DNA of 21,617 nt, taken from assembly GCA_964012805.1 (NCBI GenBank), contig CAXGUD010000057.1:1-21617 (forward strand), given 5' to 3'. Position numbers and translations under genes: made by a program. Below are positions 1 to 20,436 of this stretch, one piece after another (position 1 is the first letter of the stretch; every line of letters begins with the position of its first letter). The DNA comes from an uncultured Bacteriovoracaceae bacterium (GTDB lineage: Bacteria; Bdellovibrionota; Bacteriovoracia; Bacteriovoracales; Bacteriovoracaceae). The notes below the pieces were generated by a model, which was given only the letters and a program-made list of their open reading frames with translations, was not told the DNA's origin and ran no database searches.

Positions 1-14
1 TTCCTTTTAAAGTT

Positions 15-42: not shown

Positions 43-76
43 CTTAGGGATCAATTAAAATATTCTTGGTGGACCA

Positions 77-904: not shown

Positions 905-927
905 CGCCTATTAAGGAGATACCTCTC

Positions 928-2679: not shown

Positions 2680-2690
2680 AAAGGTCTAAC

Positions 2691-4409: not shown

Positions 4410-4413
4410 TAGA

Positions 4414-4569
4414 ATGATGGTTCCCATTTAAGATCATCTCCTAATTTTACCTAGATCCAAATTGCGTATTAAAAGACTGAAAAAAGGAGTATCCAATAGG
4501 ATTGTAATGATTACTTTTGATGTAGAAATTTTTGGTTCGATGCTCCAAAAAAGAGTCTATGAAGTTTAG
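4414..4569 (+). pseudogene. Possible N-terminal remnant of a polysaccharide deacetylase-like gene
   Basis: ATG at 4414, 4 nt after the upstream stop; in-frame TAA at 4429; frame continues ...NRIVMITFDVEIFG... to TAG at 4567-4569. TFDVE resembles CE4/NodB-like motif 1. Confidence 0.25.
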
Positions 4570-5615
4570 ATAAACTCAAACTTCATAGGTGTTCCCTTTT
4601 TCACCTCTTTTTTGACTTTTTGACCGATAAGCCTTTCGTAGTGCTTTGGAGGAAGGCCAAAGCCAGGTCTGATGCACCTTAGGTTTTTCTCAGTCAAAAT
4701 ATCCCCAGCTTTAAGGTCATCACAAATGTAAATAGATCTTCTAAAGGCCTTTGATTTTTCTTCATTTTTAGCACAGCCGTAAGTAACTTGACCAAGTGAT
4801 TGCCATGCTCTTTCCGTTTCTATGACGAGGCTTTTAAGCTCAGCTGGCTCCAGAGAAAAGGCTGAGTCGACTCCACCTTCGGCCCTGGAAAGGGTAAAGT
4901 GTTTTTCGACGACTGTCGCCCCAAAAGCAACTGAAGCACAGGCTACGCCAATACCCATAGTGTGGTCTGAAAGGCCCACTTGAACACCAAAGAGCTCCCT
5001 CATATGTTTAATAGTCGAAATATTTGTATTGGAAGGGTCTGCTGGATAAGTACTGGTACATTTTAAAAGGATAATGTCTTTGCAACCATTGTTTCGTGCT
5101 GTTTTGACACTCAATTCAAGTTCCGATACTGAGGCCATACCAGTAGAAATAATCATTGGTTTTCCGGTTTGAGCAACCTTTTTAATAAGAGGAATGTCGG
5201 TGTTTTCAAAGGAAGCTATTTTATAAAAGGGGACTTCTAACTCTTCAAGAAAATCTACAGCAGTTGTATCAAACGGGGTTGAAAAACAAAGGACATTTCG
5301 CTTTTTACAATGGTCAAAGATGGCCTTATGCCATTCCCAAGGAGTATGGGCCTCTTCATAAAGCTCATAAAGACTCCGCCCTTTCCAAAGGCTTTTATCA
5401 TCATTGATATAAAAATCGCCCTCAGTAATATCAAGGGTCATGGTTTCCGCTTTATAGGTTTGGATTTTAAGGGCATCGACACCTGAATCAGCGGCAGCAT
5501 CAATAATTTGAAGGGCCCTCTCCAAAGATTGGTTATGATTTCCAGACATTTCTGCAATTATGAAGGGTCTATGATTTTGTCCAATCCATTTACCGCCAAC
5601 TTTTATGTCTTTCAT
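4566..5615 (-). CDS. pseI: Pseudaminic acid synthase (NeuB family with C-terminal SAF/antifreeze-like domain)
   Basis: PFIIAEMSGNHNQSLERA, KIQTY, AHTPWEWH, KIASFE, LKCTSTYPA, GLSDHT, EKHFTL and IRPGFGL. Start at 5615 preferred: AAGGA SD lies 8 nt upstream and overlaps the alternative ATG at 5624. Confidence 0.88.
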   Translation of the reverse strand: MKDIKVGGKWIGQNHRPFIIAEMSGNHNQSLERALQIIDAAADSGVDALKIQTYKAETMTLDITEGDFYINDDKSLWKGRSLYELYEEAHTPWEWHKAIFDHCKKRNVLCFSTPFDTTAVDFLEELEVPFYKIASFENTDIPLIKKVAQTGKPMIISTGMASVSELELSVKTARNNGCKDIILLKCTSTYPADPSNTNISTIKHMRELFGVQVGLSDHTMGIGVACASVAFGATVVEKHFTLSRAEGGVDSAFSLEPAELKSLVIETERAWQSLGQVTYGCAKNEEKSKAFRRSIYICDDLKAGDILTEKNLRCIRPGFGLPPKHYERLIGQKVKKEVKKGTPMKFEFI

Positions 5616-5650
5616 GGCCCACATCCTTTCTTGTTTGTTAAAGATGAATA

Positions 5651-5680
5651 ACGATATAAAGATTTTTAAGGGATTGTCAT
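5651..5680 (-). promoter_or_regulatory. Putative sigma70 promoter for pseI
   Basis: On the minus strand ATGACA (5680-5675), 18-nt spacer, TATCGT (5656-5651), about 35 nt upstream of the start. Confidence 0.3.
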
Positions 5681-5845
5681 GTCATATTCTAAAAATTGAG
5701 GGAGCGTTTTTTACTAACACTTTGCGTTTCATTAGGGCACTGGTGACCACTATCACTTACCTCAGGGAATAGATTTGACCTTCGATTGAATCATCATGTA
5801 GCTTACTTATTGGACTTAAATATTTTTTATATCTTTGTGAAAATT

Positions 5846-6565
5846 ATGGAACAAGAACTCACCCTATCATCGAAGATATCTATTGCCTTGGAAAAGTCTT
5901 CTGACTTCGAGTCTCGTATTGAAAAGTTTAGTGAAAAAATTGATATTTTCTGGAATCAAGAAAAAAGAAAAAAGAATTTGACCAATGGAAGCCTTTTAAA
6001 CTTTTCATCCCTTTCTCAAGTGGGGGATTCTCTTGAAATTAAGGCCTATTTTGTTGAATACAAGCATTTTTTGTTTCAAAGAAATATGGGTGAAAACCTT
6101 TTGATAAATCCTATAGGTGTTAGCGGAATCGCTTTGCAGAATAAAGGTCATAAAGGGCATTTCTTGGTGGGAAGGCGGTCTAACTCCGTGACCCAGTATC
6201 CAGAGCATTATGAATTTATTCCTTCAGGATCGATAGAGGTTGATGCTCAAAAAAATGGGATGGTTGATTATAAAAAACAGCTTATCAAAGAGTTGAAAGA
6301 GGAGTCGGGGTTAACGGAAAAAAATATTAAGTCCGTTCATGAACTCTGTTTAATTTATGATAAACTGGATCGGGTTTACGATATAGGAATTTGCGTGGAG
6401 CTAAAAGAAGCAGAGCTTTCCCTAAACCCAGAATTGAGTGAATATAAGGGAATTAGTATTCAAACACCCAGTTCTATTGAAAAAACATTTTCTAGAGAGG
6501 ACGTTGTTCCGACGAGTAAATTATTATTTCAGGCATTCAAAATGTCGTCTCAAAAAAGGAAATAA
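5846..6565 (+). CDS. NUDIX-family hydrolase (NUDT22-like, possible NDP-sugar pyrophosphatase)
   Basis: PIGVSG..FLVGRRS..YPEHYEFIPSGSIE..LIKELKEESGL, a Nudix box with an insertion. ATG at 5846 is more plausible than TTG at 5786. Confidence 0.72.
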   Translation: MEQELTLSSKISIALEKSSDFESRIEKFSEKIDIFWNQEKRKKNLTNGSLLNFSSLSQVGDSLEIKAYFVEYKHFLFQRNMGENLLINPIGVSGIALQNKGHKGHFLVGRRSNSVTQYPEHYEFIPSGSIEVDAQKNGMVDYKKQLIKELKEESGLTEKNIKSVHELCLIYDKLDRVYDIGICVELKEAELSLNPELSEYKGISIQTPSSIEKTFSREDVVPTSKLLFQAFKMSSQKRK

Positions 6566-6568
6566 TTT

Positions 6569-7528
6569 GTGGCAAAAGATGAAAGCGGTTTGAACAACTT
6601 TCGAATGGGCCTTTACGAGGAAATGCGTTTTATAAGGTCATTTGAAGAAAACCTCTTAAAACTTTTTGATGAGGGGCTTCTTTTTGGAACAACCCATACC
6701 TCGATTGGGCAAGAGGCCCTTGCGGTTTCTCTTTCAAGAGTCACAAGAGAAGAAGACATCATTTTTTCTAACCACCGGTGCCATGGACATTACTTGGCAT
6801 GCCGTAAAAATCCGAAGGCCCTTTTACATGAAATTATGGGGCGCCAAGGAGGTGTGTGTGAAGGGTATGGTGGGAGCCAACATATCTATGACAGAAATTT
6901 TTATTCAAATGGTATCCAAGGTGGCTATGTTCCTATTGTGGCAGGAATGGCCCTCGCTGAAAAAGTGAAAAGGACTCAAAATATTGCGGTAGGACTTATC
7001 GGCGACGGCACCCTTGGCGAGGGTTTGGTCTACGAGGGTCTTAACCTGATGTCTATTTTGGAAACCCCTTCTCTTATTATCGTTGAAAATAATCAGTATG
7101 CTCAGTCAACTCCAACGAAAAGAACGACGGGTGGTCAAATTATAGACCGGGCGAAGGCCTTTGGAATATCATGTTTTGAAACGGATCACCATGATGTCTT
7201 GGCAATCCATAATCATTTGGAAAAAGCGGCCATTCAGGTGAGAGAAGAGAAGCGTCCCTTTGTTTTTGTCCACCATACGTACCGCCTTGGACCTCATAGC
7301 AAAGGTGATGATGACCGTCCACTAGATGAAATCGAAAAGTGGAAAAAAGTCGATCCTCTTAAATTGTTAGAGGAGAGTTTAAGGGCAGAAGATGTCGAGC
7401 AGGTTAAAAACAGGATTGCCACGGAGATCGGAAAAATGACCGATGAGGCAAAAAATGCAAAGCTTGCTGAACTCAAAAATGAATTCTCAAAGGATACCTT
7501 GTGGAAAGAAGATACGTTCAAGCTTTAA
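6569..7528 (+). CDS. TPP-dependent dehydrogenase E1 component, alpha subunit-like
   Basis: GQEA, NHRCHGH, GGSQH, TPP-binding GDG...ENNQYA, and YRLGPHS loop; GTG start 3 nt after the upstream stop. Confidence 0.92.
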   Translation: MAKDESGLNNFRMGLYEEMRFIRSFEENLLKLFDEGLLFGTTHTSIGQEALAVSLSRVTREEDIIFSNHRCHGHYLACRKNPKALLHEIMGRQGGVCEGYGGSQHIYDRNFYSNGIQGGYVPIVAGMALAEKVKRTQNIAVGLIGDGTLGEGLVYEGLNLMSILETPSLIIVENNQYAQSTPTKRTTGGQIIDRAKAFGISCFETDHHDVLAIHNHLEKAAIQVREEKRPFVFVHHTYRLGPHSKGDDDRPLDEIEKWKKVDPLKLLEESLRAEDVEQVKNRIATEIGKMTDEAKNAKLAELKNEFSKDTLWKEDTFKL

Positions 7529-8517
7529 ATGAATCTCTCTTTAAGCTTATGGAGGATCAGGAAGAAACCTTTGTTATTGGGGAGGATATTTTGGATCCTT
7601 ACGGTGGTGCCTTTAAGGTGACCAAGGGGTTGTCCACTAAATTTCCTGAAAGAGTTATTTCAACACCTATAAGCGAAGCTGGGATTACAGGGCTTGCAAC
7701 AGGTCTTGCCCTAAGAGGTTTTAAACCTATTGTAGAAATTATGTTTGGAGATTTTGTAACATTAATAGCCGATCAACTTGTCAATCATGCCTGTAAGTTT
7801 AAGTGGATGTATAATGATCAAGTTGATGTACCCCTTATTATCCGAACCCCTATGGGTGGAAGGAGGGGGTATGGCCCAACTCATAGTCAGACTCTAGAGC
7901 AGATGTTTTTGTCGGTGCCTCAGTTAAAAATTGTGGCCCCATCTCACCTACATGATCCAGGTGCTCTTTTGTATAAGGCCTCTAAAAGTGAGAAGACACC
8001 TCTTCTTTTTATTGAGAATAAACTTCTTTATTCTCAAAAAATAAGGCAAGGAAACAGATACAAGGATTTTTTCATTAAAGAAGAGACCGGTCCGACAGGA
8101 CACTCGACAGTGCTTGCCTCCCTTGTTCCTTTTGACGAACCGGCGGATGTCGCCCTTATTTGTTATGGAGGAATGACTCCTTTGGCACTCGAAGCTTCCT
8201 TTGAACTTTTTATGGAGGAAGAAATTGTGGTTAATGTCATCGTTCCTTCACTCATCAACCCAATCCCTATTGAGGATATTTTGAAACTAAATGGTGGAAC
8301 GGATAAAATCGTGATTTGTGAAGAAAGTAACTCAAATGGTGGTTGGTCAGGGGAATTGTCATCTCAACTATACTTTTCTCTTTTTAAAAAGTTAGATAAG
8401 CAAATTCAGAGAGTCGGAGCAAGGCCTATCCCTATTCCTTGCTCAAAGCATCAAGAGGAAATCATTCTTCCGCAATTACCAGATATTATTTCAGCAGTTA
8501 AAAAGGTTTTGAGGTAA
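7501..8517 (+). CDS. TPP-dependent dehydrogenase E1 component, beta subunit-like
   Basis: GEDI..YGGAFKVTKGL, TPISEAGITG, VEIMFGDF, DQLVNHA and HSQ motifs; GTG start after AAGGA; overlaps E1alpha by 28 nt. Confidence 0.92.
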   Translation: MERRYVQALNESLFKLMEDQEETFVIGEDILDPYGGAFKVTKGLSTKFPERVISTPISEAGITGLATGLALRGFKPIVEIMFGDFVTLIADQLVNHACKFKWMYNDQVDVPLIIRTPMGGRRGYGPTHSQTLEQMFLSVPQLKIVAPSHLHDPGALLYKASKSEKTPLLFIENKLLYSQKIRQGNRYKDFFIKEETGPTGHSTVLASLVPFDEPADVALICYGGMTPLALEASFELFMEEEIVVNVIVPSLINPIPIEDILKLNGGTDKIVICEESNSNGGWSGELSSQLYFSLFKKLDKQIQRVGARPIPIPCSKHQEEIILPQLPDIISAVKKVLR

Positions 8518-8520
8518 TCA

Positions 8521-9630
8521 ATGAAATACAACGAAATTAAAGTTCCCCAACTAGGTGTTAATGATGATTTTGTTATTTTAAATAATTATCTTTTTCAGGA
8601 AGGGGATAAGGTAACAACGGATGAGATCGTTGCAATTGTTGAATCAACGAAAATGAGTATCGATATCAATACAGATCATGGAGGTCACTTTTTTCCTCTT
8701 TGTGAAGAGGGCGCCGAAATAAAGGTAAACGAACCATTGGGCTATATTTTTGAAACAATGGAAGAGTTAAATCACTTCAAGGCAAGTTACACTTCACCTA
8801 AAGAGTCCTCTCCTCTAGAAGAAAAAGGTGTTTCTAGTGGAAAAGTAACCAAAAAGGCAAAAGAATTGCTTAAAAGACATTCCTTGAGTTTAGAGGATAT
8901 TAAGCCTGAGTCAGGAATTTTAAGAGAAAAGGATGTTTTAAACTTTCTTGCATCAAAAAATACCGATGTTAAGTTTCCCGAATATCAAAAAGATAGGGAA
9001 CAAGTTGTCATTTTTGGTTGTGGCAAAGGTTCCCGGACAGTTATGGAAACATTATCTACAAACCAATCGTATCAGGTCGTTGGTTTTATTGTCGATAGGG
9101 CAGACCCCCCAGAAGGGATAGATGGCCTTCCTGTCTTCAACCTCCCTGATTATGAATTTTTAAAAAGCAAAGAAATTTCTACAGTGGCCCTTGCCATTAC
9201 AAACTCCTTAGAGCGTTTGGATATATTTAGAAAATTGGTAAAGAGTGGATTTAAGGTGATCAATGCCATTCATAAATTGGCCTATGTTTCTCCAACGGCA
9301 TCTTTGGGCCAGGGAAACCATGTTAAGGCCGGTGCAATCATTGACACCAATTCAAAGATTTCTGATGCCTGTATTATTGATAATAACGTGACAATACCTC
9401 ATGACAATATTGTTAAAGAGGGTGCTCACCTCGCTCCAGGCGTAACTTTGGGGAGTAGTATCACTATAGGAAAAAATGCCATCGTGGGGATTGGCTCCAG
9501 TATTTCTTCTGGAGTTGTGGTCGGTGACTTTTCTGTTGTTTCGGTAGGGTCTTCTGTTACCACAAATGTTGAGCAGAATTCAGTTGTTGAAGGAGTCCCA
9601 GGAAAGGTTATAGGGATGACTAAAAAATGA
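8521..9630 (+). CDS. Fusion of lipoyl-carrier domain, peripheral subunit-binding-like domain and NeuD/PglD-type hexapeptide sugar acyltransferase
   Basis: aa 1-77 EIKVPQLG..EGDKV..VESTKM (Lys44); aa 109-143 VTKKAKELLKRHSLSLEDI..GILREKDVLNFL; aa 161-369 VIFGCG, AITN..R, NAIH, hexapeptide repeats with PHD..HLAPG and GVPGK. GAGGT SD upstream. Confidence 0.85.
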   Translation: MKYNEIKVPQLGVNDDFVILNNYLFQEGDKVTTDEIVAIVESTKMSIDINTDHGGHFFPLCEEGAEIKVNEPLGYIFETMEELNHFKASYTSPKESSPLEEKGVSSGKVTKKAKELLKRHSLSLEDIKPESGILREKDVLNFLASKNTDVKFPEYQKDREQVVIFGCGKGSRTVMETLSTNQSYQVVGFIVDRADPPEGIDGLPVFNLPDYEFLKSKEISTVALAITNSLERLDIFRKLVKSGFKVINAIHKLAYVSPTASLGQGNHVKAGAIIDTNSKISDACIIDNNVTIPHDNIVKEGAHLAPGVTLGSSITIGKNAIVGIGSSISSGVVVGDFSVVSVGSSVTTNVEQNSVVEGVPGKVIGMTKK

Positions 9631-10265
9631 CGGCACATATTTTTTTAGATTTTGATGGAACCCTCATTGACTCCCTCGACTCTCTTTATAAAGCTTATTT
9701 AGGAATTCTCAATCAATTTGGAATCGAAGGAAGTCGTGTTGAATTTGATCTTCTAAATGGGCCATCCATTTGGGAGGTCACTCTTTATCTTAAAAAAAAA
9801 TATGGGATTGAAAGAGAAGCGGAAGAAATTTATAAAATGTACAATGAGATCATAAAGAGAAAATACTTAGATTCCAAACCCTTTTCCGATTCAGTTCTCT
9901 TTTTGGAAAAGCTCAAAAACTTAGGTGTTAAATCCTCTTTAGTAACGTCAGGATCAGAAGACCTTGTTGGCGATCTTCTAAAAAGATTGGACTGGTCAAA
10001 ATATTTTCAATTTATTGTCTATGGAACTGAAGTTAAAGAGTCAAAGCCAAGCCCTCTCATTTACCTTAAGGCCTTGGAGCTTTCAAAGGCCAGAAAAGAA
10101 AAGGTAATAGTTGTGGAAGATTCCAAAAATGGAATTAAGGCTGCCATAGGAGCGGGCCTTAAAGTTTACGGATTGGAGTCTTATCACACTTCTAACGAAC
10201 TCAAAGAAGCAGGCGCACATAAAACTATCGAAAAGATTTCTTCACTAATTCCTGAGTTAAACTAA
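9627..10265 (+). CDS. HAD-superfamily subfamily IA phosphatase (CbbY/beta-PGM-like)
   Basis: DFDGTLIDS, VTS, KPSP and VVEDSKNG motifs; ATGA overlap with the upstream gene. Confidence 0.88.
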   Translation: MTAHIFLDFDGTLIDSLDSLYKAYLGILNQFGIEGSRVEFDLLNGPSIWEVTLYLKKKYGIEREAEEIYKMYNEIIKRKYLDSKPFSDSVLFLEKLKNLGVKSSLVTSGSEDLVGDLLKRLDWSKYFQFIVYGTEVKESKPSPLIYLKALELSKARKEKVIVVEDSKNGIKAAIGAGLKVYGLESYHTSNELKEAGAHKTIEKISSLIPELN

Positions 10266-10844
10266 TAAGTCATTTAAAAAGCTTGAAGTCCTGTCAACAC
10301 TATTGCCTTGAGGTCCTGTGAGGAATTGCTCATAAAATTCGTTTGACACTCGAGGCTTTTTAAAAAATTGAGAGCTTGATCCTTCCTGGCAAAGTTCGTT
10401 TATATCTTGCAAAAAATGATCAGGTGTACGTGATATAAAGACTCTTTTTTCTAAAAGCGTTTCACAGGATGCTCTTAGTTTTATGGCCCTTGAGTCAGTT
10501 AGGAGAAGTATTGGAGCTTTGGTCGCAATAACTTCACAAAGGGTGGTACTTGGAAACTCGAGTATAAAGACATCCATTTTTTTCATAATATTTGAAAGCT
10601 TTGCTTTAGAGGAATAAAAAATACCTCCTTTTTCAGGAATAGACTTCTCCAAACCTGTACCAAAGTTTTCGAAATCGTAACCACTTTTAAAGTGGAGTTT
10701 AATTTTATCTTTGTTTTCAAAGTATTTAACGGCTTTATATCGAATGTCCAAAGTAGAGGCACTATCGTAGGCTCCAAACCTCCAAAGAACAAAAATGTCT
10801 CCTATAGGTCCACAAATGTAGCAGATATTAAGTTTTGATTTCAC
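10257..10844 (-). CDS. Hypothetical protein resembling the C-terminal Rossmann domain of a GT-B-like glycan transferase
   Basis: MDVFILEFPSTTLCEVIATKAPILLL resembles the D..I...ST...EA....P pattern of GT-B C-domains; GTG start with GAGGA SD, GTGA overlap with the upstream ORF. Confidence 0.55.
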   Translation of the reverse strand: MKSKLNICYICGPIGDIFVLWRFGAYDSASTLDIRYKAVKYFENKDKIKLHFKSGYDFENFGTGLEKSIPEKGGIFYSSKAKLSNIMKKMDVFILEFPSTTLCEVIATKAPILLLTDSRAIKLRASCETLLEKRVFISRTPDHFLQDINELCQEGSSSQFFKKPRVSNEFYEQFLTGPQGNSVDRTSSFLNDLLV

Positions 10845-12079
10845 ATTAAATCCTCAAAATAGGCAGAGCCGGTGACCACATTATTTGCTGAATAAGTTGG
10901 AAATATTTCTTTGGTTTCATCTACAAAGTCTTTCACAAGTTCGCTATAGATGAGGTAATGGGAGTTTTCTTTATTTTTTAAGTTTCTTGTGCAAACTGGA
11001 GATGGAGAAAGACCATCCAATAAGCCTACCGTACCTCCATGAAGGGCCAGGACGCTCTGGATGCCTTCTCTGTCTGCGAGGTAAAACATGAGGTCTGTTT
11101 CAGTGAGTGAGTCAGTTGTAAACATTAACTTGAATTTAAATTTTTTATTAAGAGCTTTGAAAGTCTTCGCTAAGCCGCTCATTTTTTCTAGGTCTTCAAA
11201 AATAACTTTTTTAATAAGAGGCTCAAAAAGGGGAAGGAAGTTAACACCTTCTTTTAAAGTCCAAGGATGGCCATCTAGTTTAGTCATTAAATCCTTAAGG
11301 AGTTCATTTTTATCAACGGATAGGGAGCCTTTTTTTAAAAAAGGTACATCTTGCCAATAGAAAAATTCCAAATTTTTATTTTTTTCTTTTAAGGCCTTTA
11401 ATATTTTTTGTTTACCAAATGAATGACTGAAAACCAGCACCCATTTTTTTCTACTAAAAGGGAAGCTGAGAAAAGACGAAAAAAATGACGTATAACTTTT
11501 CCATTTCCGGTCTCTAAGGATGAATCTAAAAAAATTTTTGATGAAGCTTCGCGGGTAATACCAATAGGGAAAGGTCAAATCAAGCTGATGTTTTTGAGGC
11601 TTGCTTTTAATGATTTCTTCTAAATTGAGTTTTTCTTTAAATAGGGAGCAGAGAGTGTAAAAGGTATTTACTTCTTTTTTACCGTCAAAGGTGTAATAAA
11701 CTTTTTCTTCGAAATGGTCTCTCACTATTTTGAGTTTATTAAGTTCATTAATGGCCCTATAAAAGGGGAACCTCAAAGAATGAAGGCGTGCCGTAAAGGG
11801 CCAAATTTGTTCCTTTTCAAATTTTGGAATCTTTTGGTGAATAATTTTATCTGCATCATGGCACCATGAATAGAGTCCCTTTAATTTTTCATACTCTTTA
11901 TCAATTTTTACTTCCTCTTCTTTTTTGGAAATGTCTGAAAGGGTAAGGTAAGGGAGTTTTTTGTTTCTTAAAAAAATGACAGCTTCAGTTGTCCATGCAA
12001 ACAAAGCGTCAATTCCTGGCCTATAGTGAGGTTCAAAAGATTCAAAGTCAGAAGCGCCATGGACGATAAAGCATTGCAT
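10841..12079 (-). CDS. Hypothetical glycan-biosynthesis protein resembling the N-terminal part of a GT-B-like transferase
   Basis: Ends with GIQSVLALHGG..YLIYS..VVTGSAYFEDL, resembling the (Q)HG / vtGspxfd pattern of capsule and sialyl-type transferases. ATG at 12079 avoids overlap with the upstream gene (ORF-track start 12124). Confidence 0.5.
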   Translation of the reverse strand: MQCFIVHGASDFESFEPHYRPGIDALFAWTTEAVIFLRNKKLPYLTLSDISKKEEEVKIDKEYEKLKGLYSWCHDADKIIHQKIPKFEKEQIWPFTARLHSLRFPFYRAINELNKLKIVRDHFEEKVYYTFDGKKEVNTFYTLCSLFKEKLNLEEIIKSKPQKHQLDLTFPYWYYPRSFIKNFFRFILRDRKWKSYTSFFSSFLSFPFSRKKWVLVFSHSFGKQKILKALKEKNKNLEFFYWQDVPFLKKGSLSVDKNELLKDLMTKLDGHPWTLKEGVNFLPLFEPLIKKVIFEDLEKMSGLAKTFKALNKKFKFKLMFTTDSLTETDLMFYLADREGIQSVLALHGGTVGLLDGLSPSPVCTRNLKNKENSHYLIYSELVKDFVDETKEIFPTYSANNVVTGSAYFEDLM

Positions 12080-12101
12080 AGTTATACTCTCGGTATCTAT
12101 C

Positions 12102-13226
12102 TTAAAAGCAAGTGGAAAGGTCAATGCACTTGGTTTTAGTTTTCGTTTTCATTATTTCAAAAATATCCTTATAAACAAAGAGCAGGTAATCCAGTGAGTA
12201 TTCATCAATTTTGTTTGGGGGAAGAATTTCCATTCGATTTTTCCCAATGGCGAGCCCATGTTTTAAGGTATCTCTGTCAAAGCAGACCGAGCAAAGCTCA
12301 TTAAGAATTGGATAATTGGCAATGAAAAGGTTTGTACTTCCTCCAGCTCCATAAAGACCTATCTTCTTATTTTTGTAAGGGCCTAAAAGCTGGTTAATTT
12401 TTTGTGTCGTTTTTTGGATGTTTTCTTTATAGGACTCCACAATTTGCCTCGCTTTTTTGACAGGAGGCGCAGGCAGGACAGGCTTACTTGAACTTTTTTT
12501 GAAAATAAAGTGCATACAGAAATTCTCTCTTTCACTTGCAATGTACTCAAGTCCAAGAGAAGTAAAAGCATAGTGGAAAAATTCGAAATGGAAGCAGTTA
12601 ATATGTTCATGAAAAACACTATAATAGGGTCTTTTTTCTACAACGGCTTCAATGTCAGGGACCTCTATAATTAAAAAACCATCTTCTTCAAGAAGCTCAG
12701 AGATTTTTTCAAGGGCAGGACGGGGGTTATTTAGATGTTCTGCACAGTGATAAGAAAAAATAAGGTCAAATTTTTTATTTTTAAATGGGTATTGTACAAA
12801 GTCACCTTCAATAAAATGATCGACCATCTCTTTTGATTTGTCACAAACATTAAAATCAACAATGGTAGTTTCGAGTTTTGATTGGGGGAGTTGAAAGAAA
12901 ATTGAATTAACCCCTCCTCCAACATCTAAGGACTTAAGGTCTTTTCGTATTGAGTCCCCAATATGCGTTTGAAGGAATTTTATACGCCTTTCATGTATTG
13001 TGGGAATATCTTGAATAAAGACGTAGTTCTCATATAAAGATGAAATGAACTCATCCGTCATATCTTGAAGCTGAAGATGCCCGCATGTCTCACAGAGGTA
13101 GAGCTCACCTTCTTGATAGAGAGGGTCCTCTTTTTTGGATGGCCAAATATATGTTGGGAGTTTCTCAGTTGTAAAAACCTTTTTTACATTTTTTTCATAG
13201 CACCAACGGCAGCGGCTAAGGCCCAT
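12102..13226 (-). CDS. Class I SAM methyltransferase with N-terminal Zn-binding and C-terminal C-methyltransferase-type domains (NDP-sugar C-methyltransferase-like)
   Basis: CRWC..CETCG, LDVGGG, FDLIFSYHCAEH, IEVPD, FHEHINCF and IGLYGAGG; ATG at 13226 with AGGGG SD. Confidence 0.78.
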   Translation of the reverse strand: MGLSRCRWCYEKNVKKVFTTEKLPTYIWPSKKEDPLYQEGELYLCETCGHLQLQDMTDEFISSLYENYVFIQDIPTIHERRIKFLQTHIGDSIRKDLKSLDVGGGVNSIFFQLPQSKLETTIVDFNVCDKSKEMVDHFIEGDFVQYPFKNKKFDLIFSYHCAEHLNNPRPALEKISELLEEDGFLIIEVPDIEAVVEKRPYYSVFHEHINCFHFEFFHYAFTSLGLEYIASERENFCMHFIFKKSSSKPVLPAPPVKKARQIVESYKENIQKTTQKINQLLGPYKNKKIGLYGAGGSTNLFIANYPILNELCSVCFDRDTLKHGLAIGKNRMEILPPNKIDEYSLDYLLFVYKDIFEIMKTKTKTKCIDLSTCF

Positions 13227-13355
13227 TTTTGAGTACCCCTTTTCTGTTTTATTCACGTACACTTATGGATTAGTAAGGCATTGAATGGATTTTTATGGTT
13301 TCATTTTTCGCATTTTTTGTAAAGATTGCACTGCTTTTGATTTGTCGTGTCAGGT

Positions 13356-16300
13356 TTATTGCAAGTAATGAACGCCTTCACTCTTTTTTGAAGAGGAATT
13401 GAGATAAACTCCATTTAAAAAAGCTGAGGCGAGTTCGGTATTTGTGATGAGAGGACAGTTGTACTTAATAGCAATTTTCCTAATTTCCTTTCCAAAGTTA
13501 AACTTTTTTGGAAGGTCTTTACCAATCAAATTAATGACTAGGTCGATTTTTTTATTCTCCAAATCTTTAGAGAGTTTATCCAGTTGGTCCTTGTTTTCTT
13601 CAACCTCTTTGAACTCTGCATTGTTAAGGAAATCTTTTTTTATTTTAAAGTTGGTTGTGACAGGTAAACCTAGGTGAAAAGACTTATCTATAATTTTTCG
13701 GGTAAGAGGGTTTCCTTCCTGGCCTTCTGAAATGATTAAAATTCCCTTTTTAGGCTTTTTAAGGCCTACTGACTCTGTTGAGAGGAGTAAAGAGTTTTCT
13801 AAGCTCTCAGAAATACAGCCCACTTCACCCGTTGAGGACATTTCGACCCTTAATTTAGGGTCAACCCCATCAAGTCTATTAAAGCTAAACATAGGAGATT
13901 TGACACCGACTCTCTCTTTATTTTTAATCGTTATATCGTTTGAAGAAAAGCTAGTCCCAAGCAAAATTTTTGTTGCAATTTTTGCTAAGTTTACTCCAGA
14001 GACTTTAGAAACAAAGGGAAAAGACCTTGAGGCCCTGGCATTGCACTCTATGACCTTAACTTGGCCACCTTTAACAAGAAATTGAATATTAAAAGGGCCG
14101 TTAAGGTTTAAAGACCTAACTATTTTTGATCCATAGTCTTTGGCCTTTTTTAATTGATGAGGCTCAATGGTTTGGGTTGGATAAACTATAGTTGCATCTC
14201 CAGAGTGAACACCAGCTTTTTCGAGGTGTTCGGAAAAAATGGCAATAACAACCTCTCCCTTTTTAGCAACTCCATCAAGTTCAACTTCCTTAGCTCCTTC
14301 AATAAATTTTGTCAGGAGGACTGGATGTGATTTAGAAACTTTTCCCGCTTTGACTAAAAAGTCTTCCAGTTGAGCTCTATTATGGGCCACTTTCATTGAA
14401 GTTCCCGAAAGAACGAAGCTAGGTCTCACTAAAATAGGAAAACCAATACTTTTTAAAAAATTATCAACTTCGTGAATATCATTTGCTGAGATGAATTCAG
14501 GCTGGTCAACTTCCAAACCTCTTAATATGTTGGAAAAGACCACTCTTCCCTCTGCTCTTCTTATGCTTTCTATGCTGTGACCTATTATGGGAAGACCATT
14601 TTTATTTAAAGTTTCGGCCAGGCAATTAGGCAACTGTCCGCCCATACAGACGATGGCACCATTAAAGTTTTCATAGTCTGAAATATCTAAAATTCTTTCT
14701 AAAGTGAGCTCTTCAAAATAAAGTCGGTCTGCAGCATTAAAATCGGTAGAAACCGTTTCAGGGTTACAGTTTATAATTATACTCTTTATATTTTCTTGCC
14801 TAATAGCTTCAGAGCAAGTGACCGCACACCAATCAAATTCAACACTGCTTCCGATCCTGTAGGCTCCACCACCAAGCAAAAGGTAAGATTTTTCATCTCG
14901 AAAGAACTCAACGTCGGACTCTTCACCAAAATAAGTAAAATAAATATAGTTTGAGGGGGCCAAAAACTCCCCTGCGGTTGTATCAATTTTTTTGGCAAAG
15001 GGAAAAACTTCAAGTTGTTTTCTATAATTTCTAAGGGCGTTTCGGAAGCTGCCTAGGTCAATGTGATCATCGTAGTAGGGGGCTTTTTGGGTTTGAAGGT
15101 TTACAATTTGGAGGTCTGAAAAACCCGCCTGCTTCCATTTTTTAAGGGTTTCTTTATTTATAGATTTTAGGAAAACTTGGTATTCAGCGTTTGATTTGAA
15201 GGCCTTTCCTAATGCAGAGTTTGAAATACTTTTTTCAATTTTTGTAAGGTCGCTTATCTCACAAAGAAACCATTTATCGATAAAAGAAGAATTTGAAACG
15301 TCTTCTAAACTGTGGCCTCTTCTAAAGGCTTCAAAGATTTTTAAAATGCGGTCAACGGTAGGAGTTGCAATGTCTTCTAGTATATTATTCGTATTCGAAT
15401 AGGTGTGATCCAATGAAAAAATATGTTCATTTTCATGAACCATTCGTAGGGCCTTTTGGACAACTTCTTTGAAAGAGCGACCGATGGCCATAATTTCACC
15501 GACCGACTTCATCGTTGTTCCAAGGCAGTCTGAAACACCAACAAACTTTTTAAGGTCCCACTTAGGTAATTTCAAGGCCACGTAGTCAAGGGAAGGTTCG
15601 AAAAGGGCAGATGTTGTTTTTGTAACAGGATTTTTTAATTCGAGTAGGTTATATCCTATAGAAACTTTAGTCGAAAGGTAAGCAATGGGATAACCAGAAG
15701 CTTTACTGGCCAGAGCACTCGATCGAGATAACCTGGCATTAACCTCGATCACGTAGAAGGCCTTAGAAAATGGATCAAGAGCAAATTGAACATTACACTC
15801 ACCGACAATCTTTAGGTGGTTAACAATATTCAGCGAAGTTGATCTTAGGAGCTGATATTCTTCGTCGGTTAAGGTTTGGCTAGGGCATATAACAATGGAA
15901 TCTCCTGTATGGACTCCAAGGGGGTCGAAGTTTTCCATATTACAAATAGTAATGGCGTTCCCTTCACCGTCCCTCATTACTTCATATTCAACTTCCTTCC
16001 AGCCAAATAAGGACTTTTCTAATAATATTTGTGAAGAAGAGGAGAGTGCTTTTGTTGCTAATTTTTTGAGTTCCTCTTCTGAGTGGACAACACCACTTCC
16101 TAGGCCACCGAGTGCAAAAGCGGACCTCACAAGAAGAGGGAAACCTATTTCTTTTGCTGCCGAGAGGGCCTTTTCCAAAGTCGTTGCTGCAATACTTGGA
16201 ACGACTGGGATTTTGAAGTCCGTCATGAAATTGGCAAAGAGTTCCCTATCTTCTGTTAAGTTGAAGGTAGGTAGTGGTGTTCCTAGATTGCAAATATTGT

Positions 16301-16640
16301 ATTTTTCTAGAACTCCTTTTTCGTCTAGCTCTAAAATGCAATTGATGGCAGTTTGGCCACCACAATTAGCGATGATTCCGGCGGGCCTTTCTTTTTCAAT
16401 AACTTTTTCCACCCAATGGGCGTTGATAGGGTAAAGATAAATTTTTCTATTTTCTTTGGGATCGGTTTGGACGGTTGCGATATTAGGGTTCACAACAATA
16501 ACTTCAAGGCCTTCTTCTTCTAAAGATCTTAAAGCTTGGGTTCCGGAGTAATCGAATTCTCCAGCTTGACCAATGGATAAAGCTCCTGAACCAAGCAAGA
16601 GGACCTTTTTATTTTCTTTTAACCGGGGATTTAGTGGCAT
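13356..16640 (-). CDS. carB: Carbamoyl-phosphate synthetase large subunit
   Basis: GSGALSIGQAGEFDYSG, NPNIATVQTD, GVHTGDS, EVNARLSRSSALASKA, NCNPETVSTD, GVHSGDA and ECNARASRSFPFVSK; two ATP-grasp halves; 1094 aa. Confidence 0.97.
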   Translation of the reverse strand: MPLNPRLKENKKVLLLGSGALSIGQAGEFDYSGTQALRSLEEEGLEVIVVNPNIATVQTDPKENRKIYLYPINAHWVEKVIEKERPAGIIANCGGQTAINCILELDEKGVLEKYNICNLGTPLPTFNLTEDRELFANFMTDFKIPVVPSIAATTLEKALSAAKEIGFPLLVRSAFALGGLGSGVVHSEEELKKLATKALSSSSQILLEKSLFGWKEVEYEVMRDGEGNAITICNMENFDPLGVHTGDSIVICPSQTLTDEEYQLLRSTSLNIVNHLKIVGECNVQFALDPFSKAFYVIEVNARLSRSSALASKASGYPIAYLSTKVSIGYNLLELKNPVTKTTSALFEPSLDYVALKLPKWDLKKFVGVSDCLGTTMKSVGEIMAIGRSFKEVVQKALRMVHENEHIFSLDHTYSNTNNILEDIATPTVDRILKIFEAFRRGHSLEDVSNSSFIDKWFLCEISDLTKIEKSISNSALGKAFKSNAEYQVFLKSINKETLKKWKQAGFSDLQIVNLQTQKAPYYDDHIDLGSFRNALRNYRKQLEVFPFAKKIDTTAGEFLAPSNYIYFTYFGEESDVEFFRDEKSYLLLGGGAYRIGSSVEFDWCAVTCSEAIRQENIKSIIINCNPETVSTDFNAADRLYFEELTLERILDISDYENFNGAIVCMGGQLPNCLAETLNKNGLPIIGHSIESIRRAEGRVVFSNILRGLEVDQPEFISANDIHEVDNFLKSIGFPILVRPSFVLSGTSMKVAHNRAQLEDFLVKAGKVSKSHPVLLTKFIEGAKEVELDGVAKKGEVVIAIFSEHLEKAGVHSGDATIVYPTQTIEPHQLKKAKDYGSKIVRSLNLNGPFNIQFLVKGGQVKVIECNARASRSFPFVSKVSGVNLAKIATKILLGTSFSSNDITIKNKERVGVKSPMFSFNRLDGVDPKLRVEMSSTGEVGCISESLENSLLLSTESVGLKKPKKGILIISEGQEGNPLTRKIIDKSFHLGLPVTTNFKIKKDFLNNAEFKEVEENKDQLDKLSKDLENKKIDLVINLIGKDLPKKFNFGKEIRKIAIKYNCPLITNTELASAFLNGVYLNSSSKKSEGVHYLQ

Positions 16641-17728
16641 ATCAAACCTTTATGAGACTTAACGTCACTTAAGAAATCATCAATGATCCATTCTGTATCA
16701 GAGGGGCCTCCAGCTGCTTCTGGATGAAATTGGACACCTTTTATAGGTTTGGACTTATGTAAGATTCCTGCAAGTGACTCATCGTTAGCGTTTAAAAACC
16801 AAGGGCTCCAGTTTTCTGGTATACTCTCTTTTTTAACTATAAAACTATGGTTTTGGCTGGTCATAAAACCTCTGGATGGATTTTCTGTTAAGTAGACTGG
16901 ATGGTTGTGTCCTCGATGTCCAAAAGGCAGCCTGCCTGTTTGTGCACCGATTGCCAAAGACATAAGTTGAAATCCTAAGCAGATACCTAAGACTGGCTTA
17001 TCTTGGTTAAGAATTGTTTTAAGTCTTGCTGGAAGATCAAGAGTTTTATTTGGATCTCCAGGACCGTTACTAATGAGCCAGCCATCGCAATTAACTTTGT
17101 TAAAGTCTGTATTCCAAGGTAAAACTTCTACCCGACAGCCCTTTTCAATAAGTTTTCTAATGATGTTCCATTTCACTCCACAGTCAATGAGAGCAATTTT
17201 TAGAGGGCCTTTTCCTAGGGTGTAGGATGTCCGAGTAGAAACCTTTTCTATAATAGAGTGTTCGTTAGGGTCATAAAAGTCTACTGGAGTATTTGGGTCA
17301 TAGACGATTCGTCCCAAGACATTTTCTTTGTCTCTTATGATCTTAATGAGCTTTCTAGTGTCAATATTTGCTATTCCTGGAATATCATTTTCTTTAAGCC
17401 AAGCATCTAAAGTCTTTTTCCCTTTCCAGTGAAATTGTGAGTGAGAATTTTGGCTTAAAATAACACCACTTGCGTTAATTTTATCCTTCTCAAAACTTTG
17501 GGTGAGTTGATCTTTTGACAGCTCTGGAACACCGTAATTCCCAATCATTGGGTAGGAAAAAGTTATAATTTGTCCGTAGTAAGAGGGGTCAGTAATTGTT
17601 TCAACATAGCCAACCATCCCTGTTGTAAAAACCAGGTTCCCCCCAGTATTTTTTTTTGCTCCAATCGGGTGACCTACAAGTTTATCGCCAGTTGAAAGTT
17701 CTAAAATAGATGTTTCAAAGTTTGTCAT
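16631..17728 (-). CDS. carA: Carbamoyl-phosphate synthetase small (glutaminase) subunit
   Basis: FTTGMVGY..TDPSY.GQ..YPMIGNYGVP, SNGPGDP, GICLG (Cys nucleophile), GHRGHNHP, SQNH and QFHPEA. Confidence 0.96.
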   Translation of the reverse strand: MTNFETSILELSTGDKLVGHPIGAKKNTGGNLVFTTGMVGYVETITDPSYYGQIITFSYPMIGNYGVPELSKDQLTQSFEKDKINASGVILSQNSHSQFHWKGKKTLDAWLKENDIPGIANIDTRKLIKIIRDKENVLGRIVYDPNTPVDFYDPNEHSIIEKVSTRTSYTLGKGPLKIALIDCGVKWNIIRKLIEKGCRVEVLPWNTDFNKVNCDGWLISNGPGDPNKTLDLPARLKTILNQDKPVLGICLGFQLMSLAIGAQTGRLPFGHRGHNHPVYLTENPSRGFMTSQNHSFIVKKESIPENWSPWFLNANDESLAGILHKSKPIKGVQFHPEAAGGPSDTEWIIDDFLSDVKSHKGLICH

Positions 17729-18011
17729 TCAAATTCCAGGTAACAATTCTTTGTAGTGTATGGAGAGACCTCACTATTTTTATAAACGATAAAAGTCTAC
17801 TTTAAAGAATTTGAATAATCTAGAAATTCTTCAAAGGAGTCAGCCTAATGCCTAAAGTATAGTTTCTCGATAAATGAGTGATATTATTGAGGCTTTAATT
17901 TAATTGATTTTTAAAATAATTCTTTATGGTCAATTGATTTTAAATTTTTCTTTCACTAATAATTTAAATGATGTAATTTTTTGTAGTATTATTTTTTATG
18001 AGGGCAAAGAA

Positions 18012-18395
18012 TTGATAATTTATAAAGACATTTCTAAAAGTCAATGTAAGGACACCATTTTAGTTTCAGTTTTTCTATTATTTATTTTTTCTCTTTGGAA
18101 AGAGGTGGATATCTCTAAAATTGGCTTTTTAGTCGCTCTTGTGGGTCTTATTGTGCCTATTGTTTTTAAGCCAGTGGCTTTTTTTTGGTTTAATTTTTCA
18201 GTGGTTTTAGGAAATATAAGCTCTAAAGTAGTCCTAACACTTATATTTTATATTGTTGTCTCTCCAATCTCAATCTTCCGGAAAATGTTGTGGCATGATG
18301 CTCTTTCACTAAAAAGCTGGAAAAAAGATGATTCGAGCCTTTTTAAAAATAGAAACCATGAATTTGATAAAAAGGATCTAGAGACAGTTTTTTGA
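18012..18395 (+). CDS. SxtJ-family small membrane protein
   Basis: Hydrophobic segments with W....LG...SKVVLTLIFYIVVSPI...K....DAL and a C-terminal DLETVF, matching my recall of SxtJ-like proteins. In-frame TTG at 18012 with GAGGG SD is preferred over 17904. Confidence 0.75.
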   Translation: MIIYKDISKSQCKDTILVSVFLLFIFSLWKEVDISKIGFLVALVGLIVPIVFKPVAFFWFNFSVVLGNISSKVVLTLIFYIVVSPISIFRKMLWHDALSLKSWKKDDSSLFKNRNHEFDKKDLETVF

Positions 18396-18405
18396 AGGAG
18401 CAGTT

Positions 18406-18555
18406 ATGGAAACTCTAAAAGACTTTTGGGCGTTTATGAATTCAAGAAAGAAGTTTTGGCTATTACCAGCACTTCTTCTTCTCTTTTGTCTAAGTGCATT
18501 GCTTGTTTTTTCTAGTGGATCTGCTGTTGCTCCATTTATTTACACAATTTTCTAG
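18406..18555 (+). CDS. 49-aa SxtK/DUF5989-like membrane micropeptide (not in the ORF track)
   Basis: METLKDFWAFMNSRKKFWLLPALLLLFCLSALLVFSSGSAVAPFIYTIF; AAGGAG SD at 18395-18400; fills the gap between the SxtJ-like gene and the carbamoyltransferase. Confidence 0.9.
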   Translation: METLKDFWAFMNSRKKFWLLPALLLLFCLSALLVFSSGSAVAPFIYTIF

Positions 18556-18564
18556 GCGGCATTA

Positions 18565-20436
18565 ATGACAAAGATTTTAGGTATCTCGGCTTTCTATCAC
18601 GACAGCGCTGCGGCCATAATTGAGGATGGCCAAGTTTTGTATGCTGCTCAAGAAGAGAGGTTTACGAGAAAGAAAAATGACTCTTCATTTCCAATAAACG
18701 CGATAAGGTTTATTTTAAAAGAGTCAAAAATAGATTTTGAAGAAATTGAAGCGGTTGCCTTTTATGATAAGCCCTTTCTTAAGTTTGAAAGGTTGTTAGA
18801 GACTTACCATACCTTTGCTCCAAAAGGGCTCAAGAGCTTTTTATCGGCCATGCCAGTTTGGGTAAAAGAAAAAATTTTCATGAAGAGGTTAATTAGAGAA
18901 AGCTTATCCGAGTTTGCCGATAAAAATGTCATAAAAAAAACGAAGATCTTTTTTCCAGAGCACCACCTTTCACATGCTGCCAGTGCGTTTTATCCCTCGC
19001 CATTTAATGAAGCTGCTATTTTAACCATTGATGGTGTTGGAGAGTGGGCAACCACTGCTATTTCACACGGTCGGGATAAAAAAATTAAAGTTCTTTCTGA
19101 AATTCACTTTCCCCACTCTTTGGGCCTATTGTACTCTGCCTTTACATATTATTGTGGTTTCAAGGTAAATAGTGGCGAATATAAGCTTATGGGGTTGGCC
19201 CCCTATGGAAATCCAGATTCAGAGGAGACTAAGAATTATATTGCTTCTATAAAAGCAGAGCTTATTGATATTAGAAAAGATGGTTCATTTAGTCTCAATA
19301 TGAAATTCTTTAATTATGCCACAGGGTTAGAAATGTGTGTCCTTAAAGAATGGGAGAAACTATTTAATTTGCCTAAAAGGACTTCTGAAGGAAAAATCAA
19401 TCAATCCTATATGAATCTTGCCCTGGCCATTCAAGTTGTCACTGAAGAAGTCGTTTTAAAGCTCGCTCAAACTGCTAAAGAGCTGACAAATAGTAAATAC
19501 CTTGTTTTGGCCGGTGGTGTGGCCCTTAATTGTGTCGCAAATGGTAAACTTTTACAGAAAAAAATATTTGATGATATTTGGATACAACCAGCTGCTGGTG
19601 ATTCAGGGGGATCTCTAGGGGCTGCTTTGGCCTGCTATCATATTGCGATGGATAAGCCTCGAATAGAGAATAATGACCAAGCTGATTTAATGAGGGGTAG
19701 CTACCTAGGACCTTCATATGATGATCATGAAGTTGAGAGGTATTTAAAGAAATTTGGAGCAAAGTTTCAAAAGTTTGAAAAGTTTGATCAGCTTACTGAT
19801 GTGGTCTCAGAAAAAATTTCCAAAGGTAATGTTGTTGGTTGGTTTCAAGGTCGATTGGAGTGGGGACCAAGGGCATTGGGTAATAGAAGCATCTTAGGAG
19901 ATAGCCGTTTTCCTGACATGCAAAAAAAATTGAATTTAAAGATAAAATACAGAGAAGGTTTTCGTCCCTTCGCTCCTTCAGTTTTAGAAGAGGATAGAAA
20001 TGAGTATTTTGACCTCGAAAAAGATTCTCCTTATATGCTTTTGGTGAGTCCAGTAAAGGGTAAAAGAAGGACTGAGGAACCAAAAGATTATTCCGGTTAT
20101 GCTCTCTACGATAGGCTTTATCATTTAAGGTCAGATGTCCCTGCTATTACTCACATAGATTATTCCGCAAGAGTACAAACAGTCAGCCAAAAAACGAATA
20201 AAAGGTATTGGAAACTTATCAAGGCTTATAAAGAAAAAACAGGTTTTGGACTTCTTGTTAACACGAGTTTTAACGTTAGAGGAGAGCCCATTGTTTGTAG
20301 CCCAATGGATGCTTACCTTTGTTTCATGAGAACAGAAATGGATTATCTTGTTATTGGAAACTACTACCTGGAAAAGGTCAATCAACCTGTTCTTAAAGAC
20401 CAAGTTGATTGGAAGAATGCCTTTGCTTTGGATTAA
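18565..20436 (+). CDS. Carbamoyltransferase, NodU/CmcH/TobZ family (SxtI-like)
   Basis: GISAFYHDSAA, EERFTRKK, EHHLSHAASAF, DGVGE, GEYKLMGLAPYG, GGVALNC, GPRALGNRSIL, FRPFAP and NTSFNVRGEPIV. Confidence 0.95.
   Translation: MTKILGISAFYHDSAAAIIEDGQVLYAAQEERFTRKKNDSSFPINAIRFILKESKIDFEEIEAVAFYDKPFLKFERLLETYHTFAPKGLKSFLSAMPVWVKEKIFMKRLIRESLSEFADKNVIKKTKIFFPEHHLSHAASAFYPSPFNEAAILTIDGVGEWATTAISHGRDKKIKVLSEIHFPHSLGLLYSAFTYYCGFKVNSGEYKLMGLAPYGNPDSEETKNYIASIKAELIDIRKDGSFSLNMKFFNYATGLEMCVLKEWEKLFNLPKRTSEGKINQSYMNLALAIQVVTEEVVLKLAQTAKELTNSKYLVLAGGVALNCVANGKLLQKKIFDDIWIQPAAGDSGGSLGAALACYHIAMDKPRIENNDQADLMRGSYLGPSYDDHEVERYLKKFGAKFQKFEKFDQLTDVVSEKISKGNVVGWFQGRLEWGPRALGNRSILGDSRFPDMQKKLNLKIKYREGFRPFAPSVLEEDRNEYFDLEKDSPYMLLVSPVKGKRRTEEPKDYSGYALYDRLYHLRSDVPAITHIDYSARVQTVSQKTNKRYWKLIKAYKEKTGFGLLVNTSFNVRGEPIVCSPMDAYLCFMRTEMDYLVIGNYYLEKVNQPVLKDQVDWKNAFALD

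Follow-up and report, generated by a model that had tools for sequence, protein, structure and literature searches.

The 21,617-nucleotide contig CAXGUD010000057.1 of an uncultured Bacteriovoracaceae bacterium (assembly GCA_964012805.1), referred to in its entirety as the window, encodes a 49-aa microprotein that terminates in F44-I45-Y46-T47-I48-F49 immediately before its stop codon and is flanked by the genes for an SxtJ-like membrane protein and an O-carbamoyltransferase (Table 1). We propose that this microprotein probably carries carbamoyl groups across the membrane for decoration of the cell surface. On balance, we favour a relay in which the carbamoyl group would pass from carbamoyl-AMP to Tyr46 (codon 18541-18543), from there to the serine of an SGNH protein and then to a surface glycan, without the involvement of a membrane-bound O-acyltransferase (MBOAT).

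The reading frame, described in the initial annotation of this DNA as a 49-aa open reading frame (ORF) with a strong Shine-Dalgarno sequence and an FIYTIF ending, was confirmed on the forward strand, with AAGGAG located 5 nt upstream of the ATG. Along its whole length (positions 1-49 of 49) the product matches the Pfam family DUF5989 (PF19451) with 80 bits (cut-off 27), no other Pfam family being matched at E <= 0.01, and one DUF5989 member is named SxtK in UniRef; the microprotein thus belongs to a known family without known function. Comparison of its profile with solved structures yielded no meaningful relative. AlphaFold2 predicts an amphipathic helix (residues 2-14) and a hydrophobic one (19-35), followed by a tail with a predicted local distance difference test (pLDDT) score of about 61. 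The single hydrophobic stretch is preceded by R14-K15-K16, and across 83 aligned homologues the mean number of Lys and Arg residues is 4.3 before the helix and 0.17 after it, a charge bias that fits an N-terminus located inside the cell.

Conservation of the tail was assessed with a profile blind to it, built from residues 1-40 of 52 diverse members with the last nine residues omitted. A search of 1.84 billion representatives (E <= 0.001) retrieved 4,644 clusters at 50% identity, and tails were read in the best 150 matches, 102 of which stop exactly nine residues past the profile end. Within these intact tails, tyrosine is found at position -4 in 102/102, whereas Pro at -7, Phe at -6 and Phe at -1 are each present in 101/102. 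The other 48 matches fall outside the tail count (45 continue into unrelated tails and three end early) and appear to represent frameshifts and read-throughs; over all of the best 150, the position is occupied by Tyr in 121. Among 116 distinct peptides from the phylum, Tyr is found at -4 in every one, Phe at -1 in 104 and Phe at -6 in 97, a count that is partly circular because the profile used included the tail and five weak motif-less matches had been dropped by eye beforehand. A change from Tyr to Phe is seen neither in the 102 intact tails nor in the 116 phylum peptides, in which nearby aromatic positions vary, suggesting that the hydroxyl matters. Likewise, 79 of 80 loci from GTDB end in APFIYTIF, but the tail itself had helped to seed this set, which is therefore not used as evidence for tail conservation. 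The motif by itself is a weak indicator, since [FY]xYxxF endings occur in 16 of the genome's 61,256 stop-to-stop frames (one being the microprotein and two MBOATs); the case consequently rests on conservation.

The microprotein is tightly linked to its two neighbours, both of which the initial annotation had named as partners. Out of 301 genomes of the phylum, related members of which are not independent, 100 encode peptide and enzyme, five have the peptide but lack the enzyme, 18 have the enzyme without the peptide and 178 are devoid of both. The peptide is thus present in 105 of the 301 genomes, and the family includes many Pelagibacteraceae and Rhodospirillales. Gene neighbourhoods were sampled as 80 stretches around 136 peptide matches, spanning the score range, and as 60 stretches around enzyme matches (of about 180), mostly distant from peptide matches. 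The SxtJ-like protein scores just below the cut-off of the SxtJ family (PF19588; 22.3 bits against 24.4, E 2e-4) and matches a profile of neighbouring homologues with an E-value of 3e-24. It comprises helices 9-29 and 35-47 plus a 44-residue helix (49-92), its last residue is aromatic in 86 of 88 homologues, and in four loci it is fused to the C-terminus of the carbamoyltransferase. A fold search with its model returned nothing clear (best Z 5.3), from which neither a new fold nor a difference can be concluded. As the initial annotation had stated, no MBOAT was detected in the window (18 proteins scanned with Pfam), and MBOAT genes occur in just five of 250 loci, every one bearing a tyrosine tail of its own. 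The genome contains a second carAB copy next to the module; carAB relatives 48-59% identical to it adjoin the module in three other genomes of the phylum (L194:1299-5685, L082:1656-3142, L088:3-1489), in two cases following immediately on the microprotein gene, which fits a dedicated supply of carbamoyl phosphate.

Linkage also takes other forms. In several genomes the peptide gene is separate from the enzyme-SxtJ pair (L149, L162, L165, L175 and L183 with L201-L205), and in three genomes the unlinked peptide gene follows one for a 545-aa multi-pass membrane protein, GT-C-like by our own reading. Loci L111, L114, L130, L133 and L136 possess a divergent enzyme clade, no detectable SxtJ and a ferritin-like-looking protein of 200-250 aa with a hydrophobic C-terminal helix and no Pfam or NCBIfam match.

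A soluble counterpart of the peptide was found in viruses. Loci were examined for the best 80 of 530 viral carbamoyltransferase matches, ORFs of at most 100 residues ending in a P-F/Y-I/V-Y pattern being taken as soluble peptides. Such tyrosine peptides occur at 42 of the 80 loci, invariably on the strand of the enzyme (44/44 ORFs), and 34 of 35 distinct sequences end in D-P-F-I-Y, with at most one extra residue. Their N-terminal part is basic and they have no membrane helix. A DUF5989-type membrane peptide is absent from these 80 loci, to which the viral survey was confined, and an SxtJ-like piece is present in just two. Viral contigs L251 (4845-6782) and L253 carry a main-clade enzyme and a 48-aa SxtJ piece, with no peptide in the fetched stretch. 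A hydrophobic N-terminus is present in 0/26 SGNH matches at the viral loci versus 99/104 at bacterial loci of the membrane form, suggesting that anchoring of the peptide and anchoring of the SGNH protein go together. The likeness of the P-F-I-Y tail to the FXYXXF motif of known acyl shuttles may be partly convergent. A bacterial locus, L222:10857-13083, also has the soluble form, comprising a short carbamoyltransferase, an SGNH protein without anchor and a basic peptide with the ending DPYIYK; a membrane-type module lies 5 kb away.

The carbamoyltransferase of the window matches PF02543 (325 bits; Kae1-like N-domain) and PF16861 (238 bits; YrdC-like C-domain), and it has the catalytic His12 together with a conserved HxxxH motif (133/137), Asp156 and Asp346. 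Alignment to GdmN equates His12 with the base His27, Tyr67 with Tyr82 and the pocket residue Lys73 with His87; GdmN His87 and helix 85-98 are described in PMC9633730 as sitting in the acceptor pocket. In a thinned set of 129 enzyme sequences, Lys73 is found in 44/44 enzymes linked to a membrane peptide, in 20/21 linked to a soluble peptide and in 1/35 of a peptide-less clade; for the second pocket residue, Arg76, the corresponding counts are 40/44, 20/21 and 8/35. As the peptide-less enzymes form one clade (support 0.95, in a tree rooted only at its midpoint), shared ancestry can explain part of this pattern. The simplest functional reading is that both peptide-linked groups of enzymes have a common acceptor, Lys73 and Arg76 presumably binding the end of the peptide. 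Membrane-type enzymes possess in addition an amphipathic insertion that is absent from viral ones (around residues 85-108; delimited as about 70-108 in the enzyme of the window). Fusion proteins of 964 and 1250 aa, in which a carbamoyltransferase bears a methyltransferase-like domain at its C-terminus, are encoded at L209:6671-9562 and L246:2779-6528, respectively.

Assembly of the three proteins was modelled by predicting a complex of the enzyme, the SxtJ-like protein and the peptide with iron (three runs and three controls). The predicted complex scored 0.61 and the best control 0.01, the score mark being one that 116 of 157 solved complexes and two of 215 mismatched pairs reach; these benchmark counts hold only roughly, since the folding job used our own alignments and included a small molecule. 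The runs agreed in at least 95% of contacts, and the partners had pLDDT values of at least 74. In the model, the first helix of the peptide meets enzyme residues 71 and 75 and the last residues of the SxtJ-like protein, whereas its hydrophobic helix packs on SxtJ-like helix 49-92 and on enzyme residues 78, 96 and 100; peptide residues 36-43 and 46 also lie within the interface. No similar complex for the peptide was found by sequence, the fold of the enzyme itself being known. The initial annotation had taken the RKK motif and the single helix to suggest an N-terminus inside and a C-terminus outside. Basic residues and charge bias agree with this, but the predicted contacts of peptide residues 26 and 30 with enzyme residues 96 and 100 are hard to square with a plain single pass. 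They suggest an enzyme insertion that reaches down into the bilayer or an oblique orientation of the helix, and either arrangement could give access to the tail.

The SGNH protein encoded at the end of the window retains intact Ser and Asp-His blocks (GDSF at 21369-21380 and DGHWN at 20532-20546), its hydrophobic N-terminal anchor being encoded on the overlapping contig C93; its best match in the PDB is PatB1, a weak one (E 0.0035). In 29 of 62 loci, the closest SGNH gene is encoded on the other strand, so that the convergent layout seen here is common. An SGNH gene is found within 3 kb of 29/61 peptide-linked enzymes, 2/15 enzymes with SxtJ only and 1/40 enzymes with neither; the sole SGNH-flanked enzyme among these 40 is adjoined by a soluble tyrosine peptide. 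Where the peptide is detached from the enzyme, it lies within 200 bp of an SGNH gene in 14 of 29 cases. Pfam assigned none of 49 motif-prefiltered proteins (G-x-S, D-x-x-H), out of 179 neighbours of peptide-less enzymes, to the GDSL/SGNH family, a scan that also misses many SGNH proteins near peptide loci.

Taken together, the relay may be pictured as follows. The three co-directional genes would give rise to one membrane complex, in which the carbamoyltransferase would dock on the inner face through its amphipathic insertion. It would convert carbamoyl phosphate (supplied by the second carAB nearby) and ATP into carbamoyl-AMP, a reaction reported as established for this enzyme family (PMC9633730), and then attach the carbamoyl group to the Tyr46 phenol of the P-F-I-Y tail. 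The microprotein would be held by the SxtJ-like protein, which would also provide a route for the tail where the bilayer is locally thinned. By analogy to PatA/PatB, the aryl carbamate would pass to the serine of the membrane-anchored SGNH protein outside, which would place the carbamoyl group on the surface glycan made by the surrounding island; transfer from acyl-Tyr to an SGNH serine has a precedent (PMC12148441). The carbamoylation of the tyrosine, the membrane crossing, the SGNH step and the acceptor are inferred. In favour of the relay are the invariance of Tyr46, the linkage of the peptide to the enzyme and SxtJ, the enrichment of SGNH genes, the absence of an MBOAT, the pocket signature, the soluble counterpart, the predicted complex and the dedicated carAB. 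The interpretation in the initial annotation is thus supported in part and amended in three respects: the peptide does not belong to the DltX family, its terminal phenylalanine is not invariant, and by gene context the SGNH partner is not obligate.

Several observations weigh against the relay. The positive-inside rule places the tail outside, whereas the enzyme is inside. His12, Lys73 and Arg76 are not among the named interface residues of the predicted complex, so the model, a multimer check that the initial annotation had suggested, backs assembly of peptide, enzyme and SxtJ without seating Tyr46 in the active site. The terminal Phe, which the initial annotation had expected to be conserved alongside the invariant Tyr, varies in divergent members (104/116) and is missing from the soluble form; its invariance is thus rejected, and the common core is P-F-I-Y rather than FIYxxF. 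The enrichment of SGNH genes is partly circular, given that neighbours of peptide loci supplied the sequences for the SGNH profile, and kin are not independent; a test by motif only was weaker (12/61 peptide-linked enzymes versus 2/40), its strict regular expression being insensitive. No SGNH gene was found within 3 kb in 32/61 phylum loci and 42/76 GTDB loci, and viewing 16 loci by eye, most of them without an SGNH match, revealed no clear missed one. With a nearby SGNH gene absent from about half of the loci, the SGNH step postulated in the initial annotation is not obligate by gene context, even though membrane-anchored SGNH proteins are enriched. Moreover, acyl carrier protein-like and AMP-ligase-like genes (our own labels) lie just past the SGNH gene on C93 and a tail-less MBOAT fragment is present on contig C29, so that the SGNH protein of this locus could serve another route. 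Finally, GdmN (PMC9633730) and a phage enzyme (PMC8670742) are described as modifying their final substrate directly, as WapO putatively does (PMC8005017).

The last point leads to an alternative that we regard as unlikely, yet serious, namely that the microprotein serves, with the SxtJ-like protein, to anchor the enzyme structurally in the membrane or to activate it, carbamoylation of a lipid-linked or nascent glycan, or of a small molecule, then taking place directly at the cytoplasmic face. The tyrosine would then be a binding residue, and the SGNH genes fellow island genes or editing esterases. Such an arrangement accommodates the half of loci lacking a nearby SGNH gene, and the confident contacts of the model are those of helix packing with the enzyme insertion and the long SxtJ-like helix. 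Direct transfer is also the known mode of the enzyme family in PMC9633730, WapO has been proposed to act on the heptose of lipopolysaccharide (PMC8005017), and the phage enzyme is reported to act without partners (PMC8670742). Conversely, a mere binding residue sits poorly with a tyrosine never replaced by Phe in 102 + 116 sequences while neighbouring aromatics vary, and an anchor sits poorly with a P-F-I-Y core that recurs in a soluble peptide without membrane helix or SxtJ. Detached peptides remaining with SGNH genes (14/29) and SGNH anchoring tracking that of the peptide likewise speak against this alternative.

It is improbable that the peptide is itself the end substrate, a carbamoylated precursor akin to a peptide made by ribosomes and modified after translation (RiPP) or the bearer of a regulatory mark, which the SGNH protein trims or removes. 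The parallel is crocagin, whose biosynthesis is described as joining a carbamoyltransferase, an esterase-fold peptidase and a basic-leader Ile-Tyr-Trp peptide, the core of which is cut by the putative esterase CgnD (PMC10070186); the N-terminal part of our soluble form is basic as well. However, a near-constant tail across phyla combined with great diversity among its SGNH partners is the opposite of what precursor diversification would give, and a membrane-embedded single-copy precursor in a glycan island is a poor fit. Crocagin formation further needs CgnB, CgnC and CgnE and consumes the peptide (PMC10070186), whereas the peptide studied here combines a membrane helix with a fixed tail and has a membrane partner that is obligate. 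Neither CgnB/CgnE nor a CgnC-like dioxygenase or other oxygenase was seen among the Pfam matches of the window or as a constant neighbour (the scan of neighbours covered 117 of 333 clusters, and no search aimed at these proteins was made). What the systems share is a carbamoyltransferase (CgnI), an esterase-fold protein (CgnD) and a small peptide (CgnA) with a C-terminal Ile-Tyr-aromatic sequence. Least probable is that an unlinked MBOAT without a tail acylates the peptide as a genuine counterpart of DltX and that the carbamoyltransferase is nearby by chance: the FXYXXF match (PMC12148441), the MBOAT fragment on C29 and the carrier- and ligase-like genes on C93 speak for it, but there is no DltX profile match at E <= 10, the MBOATs of the five loci have their own tails, and both co-occurrence across genomes and the predicted complex point to the carbamoyltransferase.

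Returning to the tyrosine relay, its closest functional parallels are DltX-DltB-DltD (D-alanylation of teichoic acids) and PatA-PatB (O-acetylation of peptidoglycan), which share with the system described here a one-helix microprotein ending in FXYXXF with an invariant Tyr (PMC12148441) and a membrane-anchored Ser/Asp/His SGNH protein. The label DltX-like, used in the initial annotation, is apt for an FXYXXF sequence placed at the stop codon after one membrane helix, but not in terms of family or loader: the peptide is absent from the four genome matches to PF12459 at E <= 10, so that membership in DltX is rejected, and there is no MBOAT to load it. It probably works like DltX or the PatA tail without being a DltX member. 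In place of an MBOAT or AT3 protein, the loader would be a soluble Kae1/YrdC-type carbamoyltransferase together with a 127-aa membrane protein. Further differences are the putative carbamoyl nature of the group, the invariant Pro at -7 and a soluble form that ends at the Tyr or one residue later. With TobZ, GdmN, NovN, NodU and WapO, the enzyme shares the two-domain fold and the catalytic residues; those enzymes act on the final substrate, whereas the peptide-linked ones are marked by Lys73/Arg76 in the helix of the acceptor pocket, to which the membrane form adds the amphipathic insertion.

The same four gene families occur together as SxtI-SxtJ-SxtK(-SxtL) in cyanobacterial saxitoxin clusters (PMC2679770, PMC2684587, PMC12300590). 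In these accounts and in bioRxiv 10.64898/2026.06.11.731795, SxtJ and SxtK appear as proteins of unknown function with which SxtI is stated to act, and the GDSL protein SxtL is put forward as a decarbamoylase. Here, as judged against the descriptions given in those papers, the genes run SxtJ-microprotein-enzyme and face a convergent SGNH gene, all within a glycan island, and further sxt-like genes were not found in the window, to which the search was limited and whose remaining genes belong to glycan-island and carAB families. The relay model would make an SxtL-type SGNH protein the last transferase, in contrast to the decarbamoylase of the papers. It is predicted to apply to saxitoxin SxtI/J/K/L as well, where the location of an acceptor that is a small molecule would have to be explained separately.

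Two systems, MBOAT-SGNH and AT3-SGNH, are named for the acylation of polymers outside the membrane in the Discussion of PMC12148441, which makes no mention of carbamoyl. A literature search, supplements aside and with most subscription journals beyond its reach, found no description of an MBOAT-free carbamoyl-Tyr mechanism, and no paper among those searched mentions DUF5989; supplements of the papers on the DltX motif could list further motif-bearing proteins. We therein see, tentatively, a third strategy for crossing the membrane, free of both MBOAT and AT3, in which a cytoplasmic adenylate-forming enzyme would load the tyrosine of a microprotein at a site built by SxtJ for an outward-facing SGNH protein. 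This strategy may be modular, with soluble DPFIY peptides serving cytoplasmic phage SGNH proteins and LPAIYxxF peptides pairing with QueC-like PP-loop ATPases.

Divergent peptides ending in LPAIYxxF were observed at L118, L121, L123 and L132 (also L127 and L131), together with an SGNH gene, a QueC-like PP-loop ATPase and a hydrophobic ORF of 63-86 aa; L118, L121, L123 and L132 contain no carbamoyltransferase in the 8-12 kb fetched. These loci possibly represent the same shuttle with another loader. At L115, L120, L124, L125 and L128, TFIYAG[VL] peptides are accompanied by a carbamoyltransferase, a WbuX-like PP-loop protein, a NifS/IscS-like desulfurase and an SGNH protein, some loci adding an ORF that we read as TusA-like, and a sulfur-containing variant is possible.

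Table 1. Features of the module and its surroundings in the window
Feature	Position	Strand	Basis and remarks
SxtJ-like membrane protein, 127 aa	18012..18395	+	TTG start; GAGGG at 18000-18004; profile matches
DUF5989/SxtK-family microprotein, 49 aa	18406..18555	+	Pfam, AlphaFold2, alignments, UniRef name
Shine-Dalgarno sequence AAGGAG of the microprotein	18395..18400	+	read from sequence; overlaps the stop of the SxtJ-like gene
NodU/TobZ/GdmN-type O-carbamoyltransferase, 623 aa	18565..20436	+	Pfam, alignments, conserved catalytic residues
SGNH protein (AlgX-like)	20433->21617	-	convergent; runs past the window end; Pfam and PDB-sequence match
carA, second genomic copy	16631..17728	-	divergent from the module; Pfam; 32% identical to the C9 copy
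carB, second genomic copy	13356..16640	-	Pfam; 37% identical to the C9 copy
AT-rich gap (24.7% GC) between the divergent carAB and SxtJ-microprotein-carbamoyltransferase units	17729..18011		read from sequence
Putative surface-glycan island around the module	77..13262		Pfam families

The layout given in the initial annotation is refined in that the SGNH gene is convergent, lies outside the operon and starts on an overlapping contig, and in that the second carAB is located divergently upstream. The intervening gap holds nine promoter-like sites, not above shuffled sequences (mean 8.0). The region at 77..13262 encodes, according to Pfam, a radical SAM protein, an ABC exporter, a heparinase II/III-like protein, a NeuB-family synthase, a thiamine pyrophosphate E1 pair, a PglD-like acetyltransferase, a HAD protein and a C-methyltransferase-like protein, families that suggest a glycan island. 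Contig C93 shares 105 bases, one of them mismatched, with the end of the window and carries the first SGNH codons; its positions 1-6542 extend the island by genes that we label, by our own reading, as carrier-protein-like, AMP-ligase-like, inositol-monophosphatase-like and GAPDH-like. Elsewhere in the genome, two AlgI-like MBOATs ending in EFVYFQF lie beside SGNH-like genes (C91:2510-3973 and C119:1211-2767), and the third MBOAT (C29:45686-46225), cut by the contig end, is without such a tail.

If correct, the tyrosine relay would provide a function for DUF5989/SxtK and for SxtJ across many phyla, Pelagibacter included, and would give SxtJ and SxtK, listed as unknown ever since the saxitoxin clusters were described, a role amenable to testing. 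SxtL-type GDSL proteins would be recast as transferases, and a third system of extracytoplasmic modification, dedicated to carbamoyl groups, would be encoded by a very large family. The model thereby predicts that carbamoylation of surface glycans is widespread in marine bacteria.

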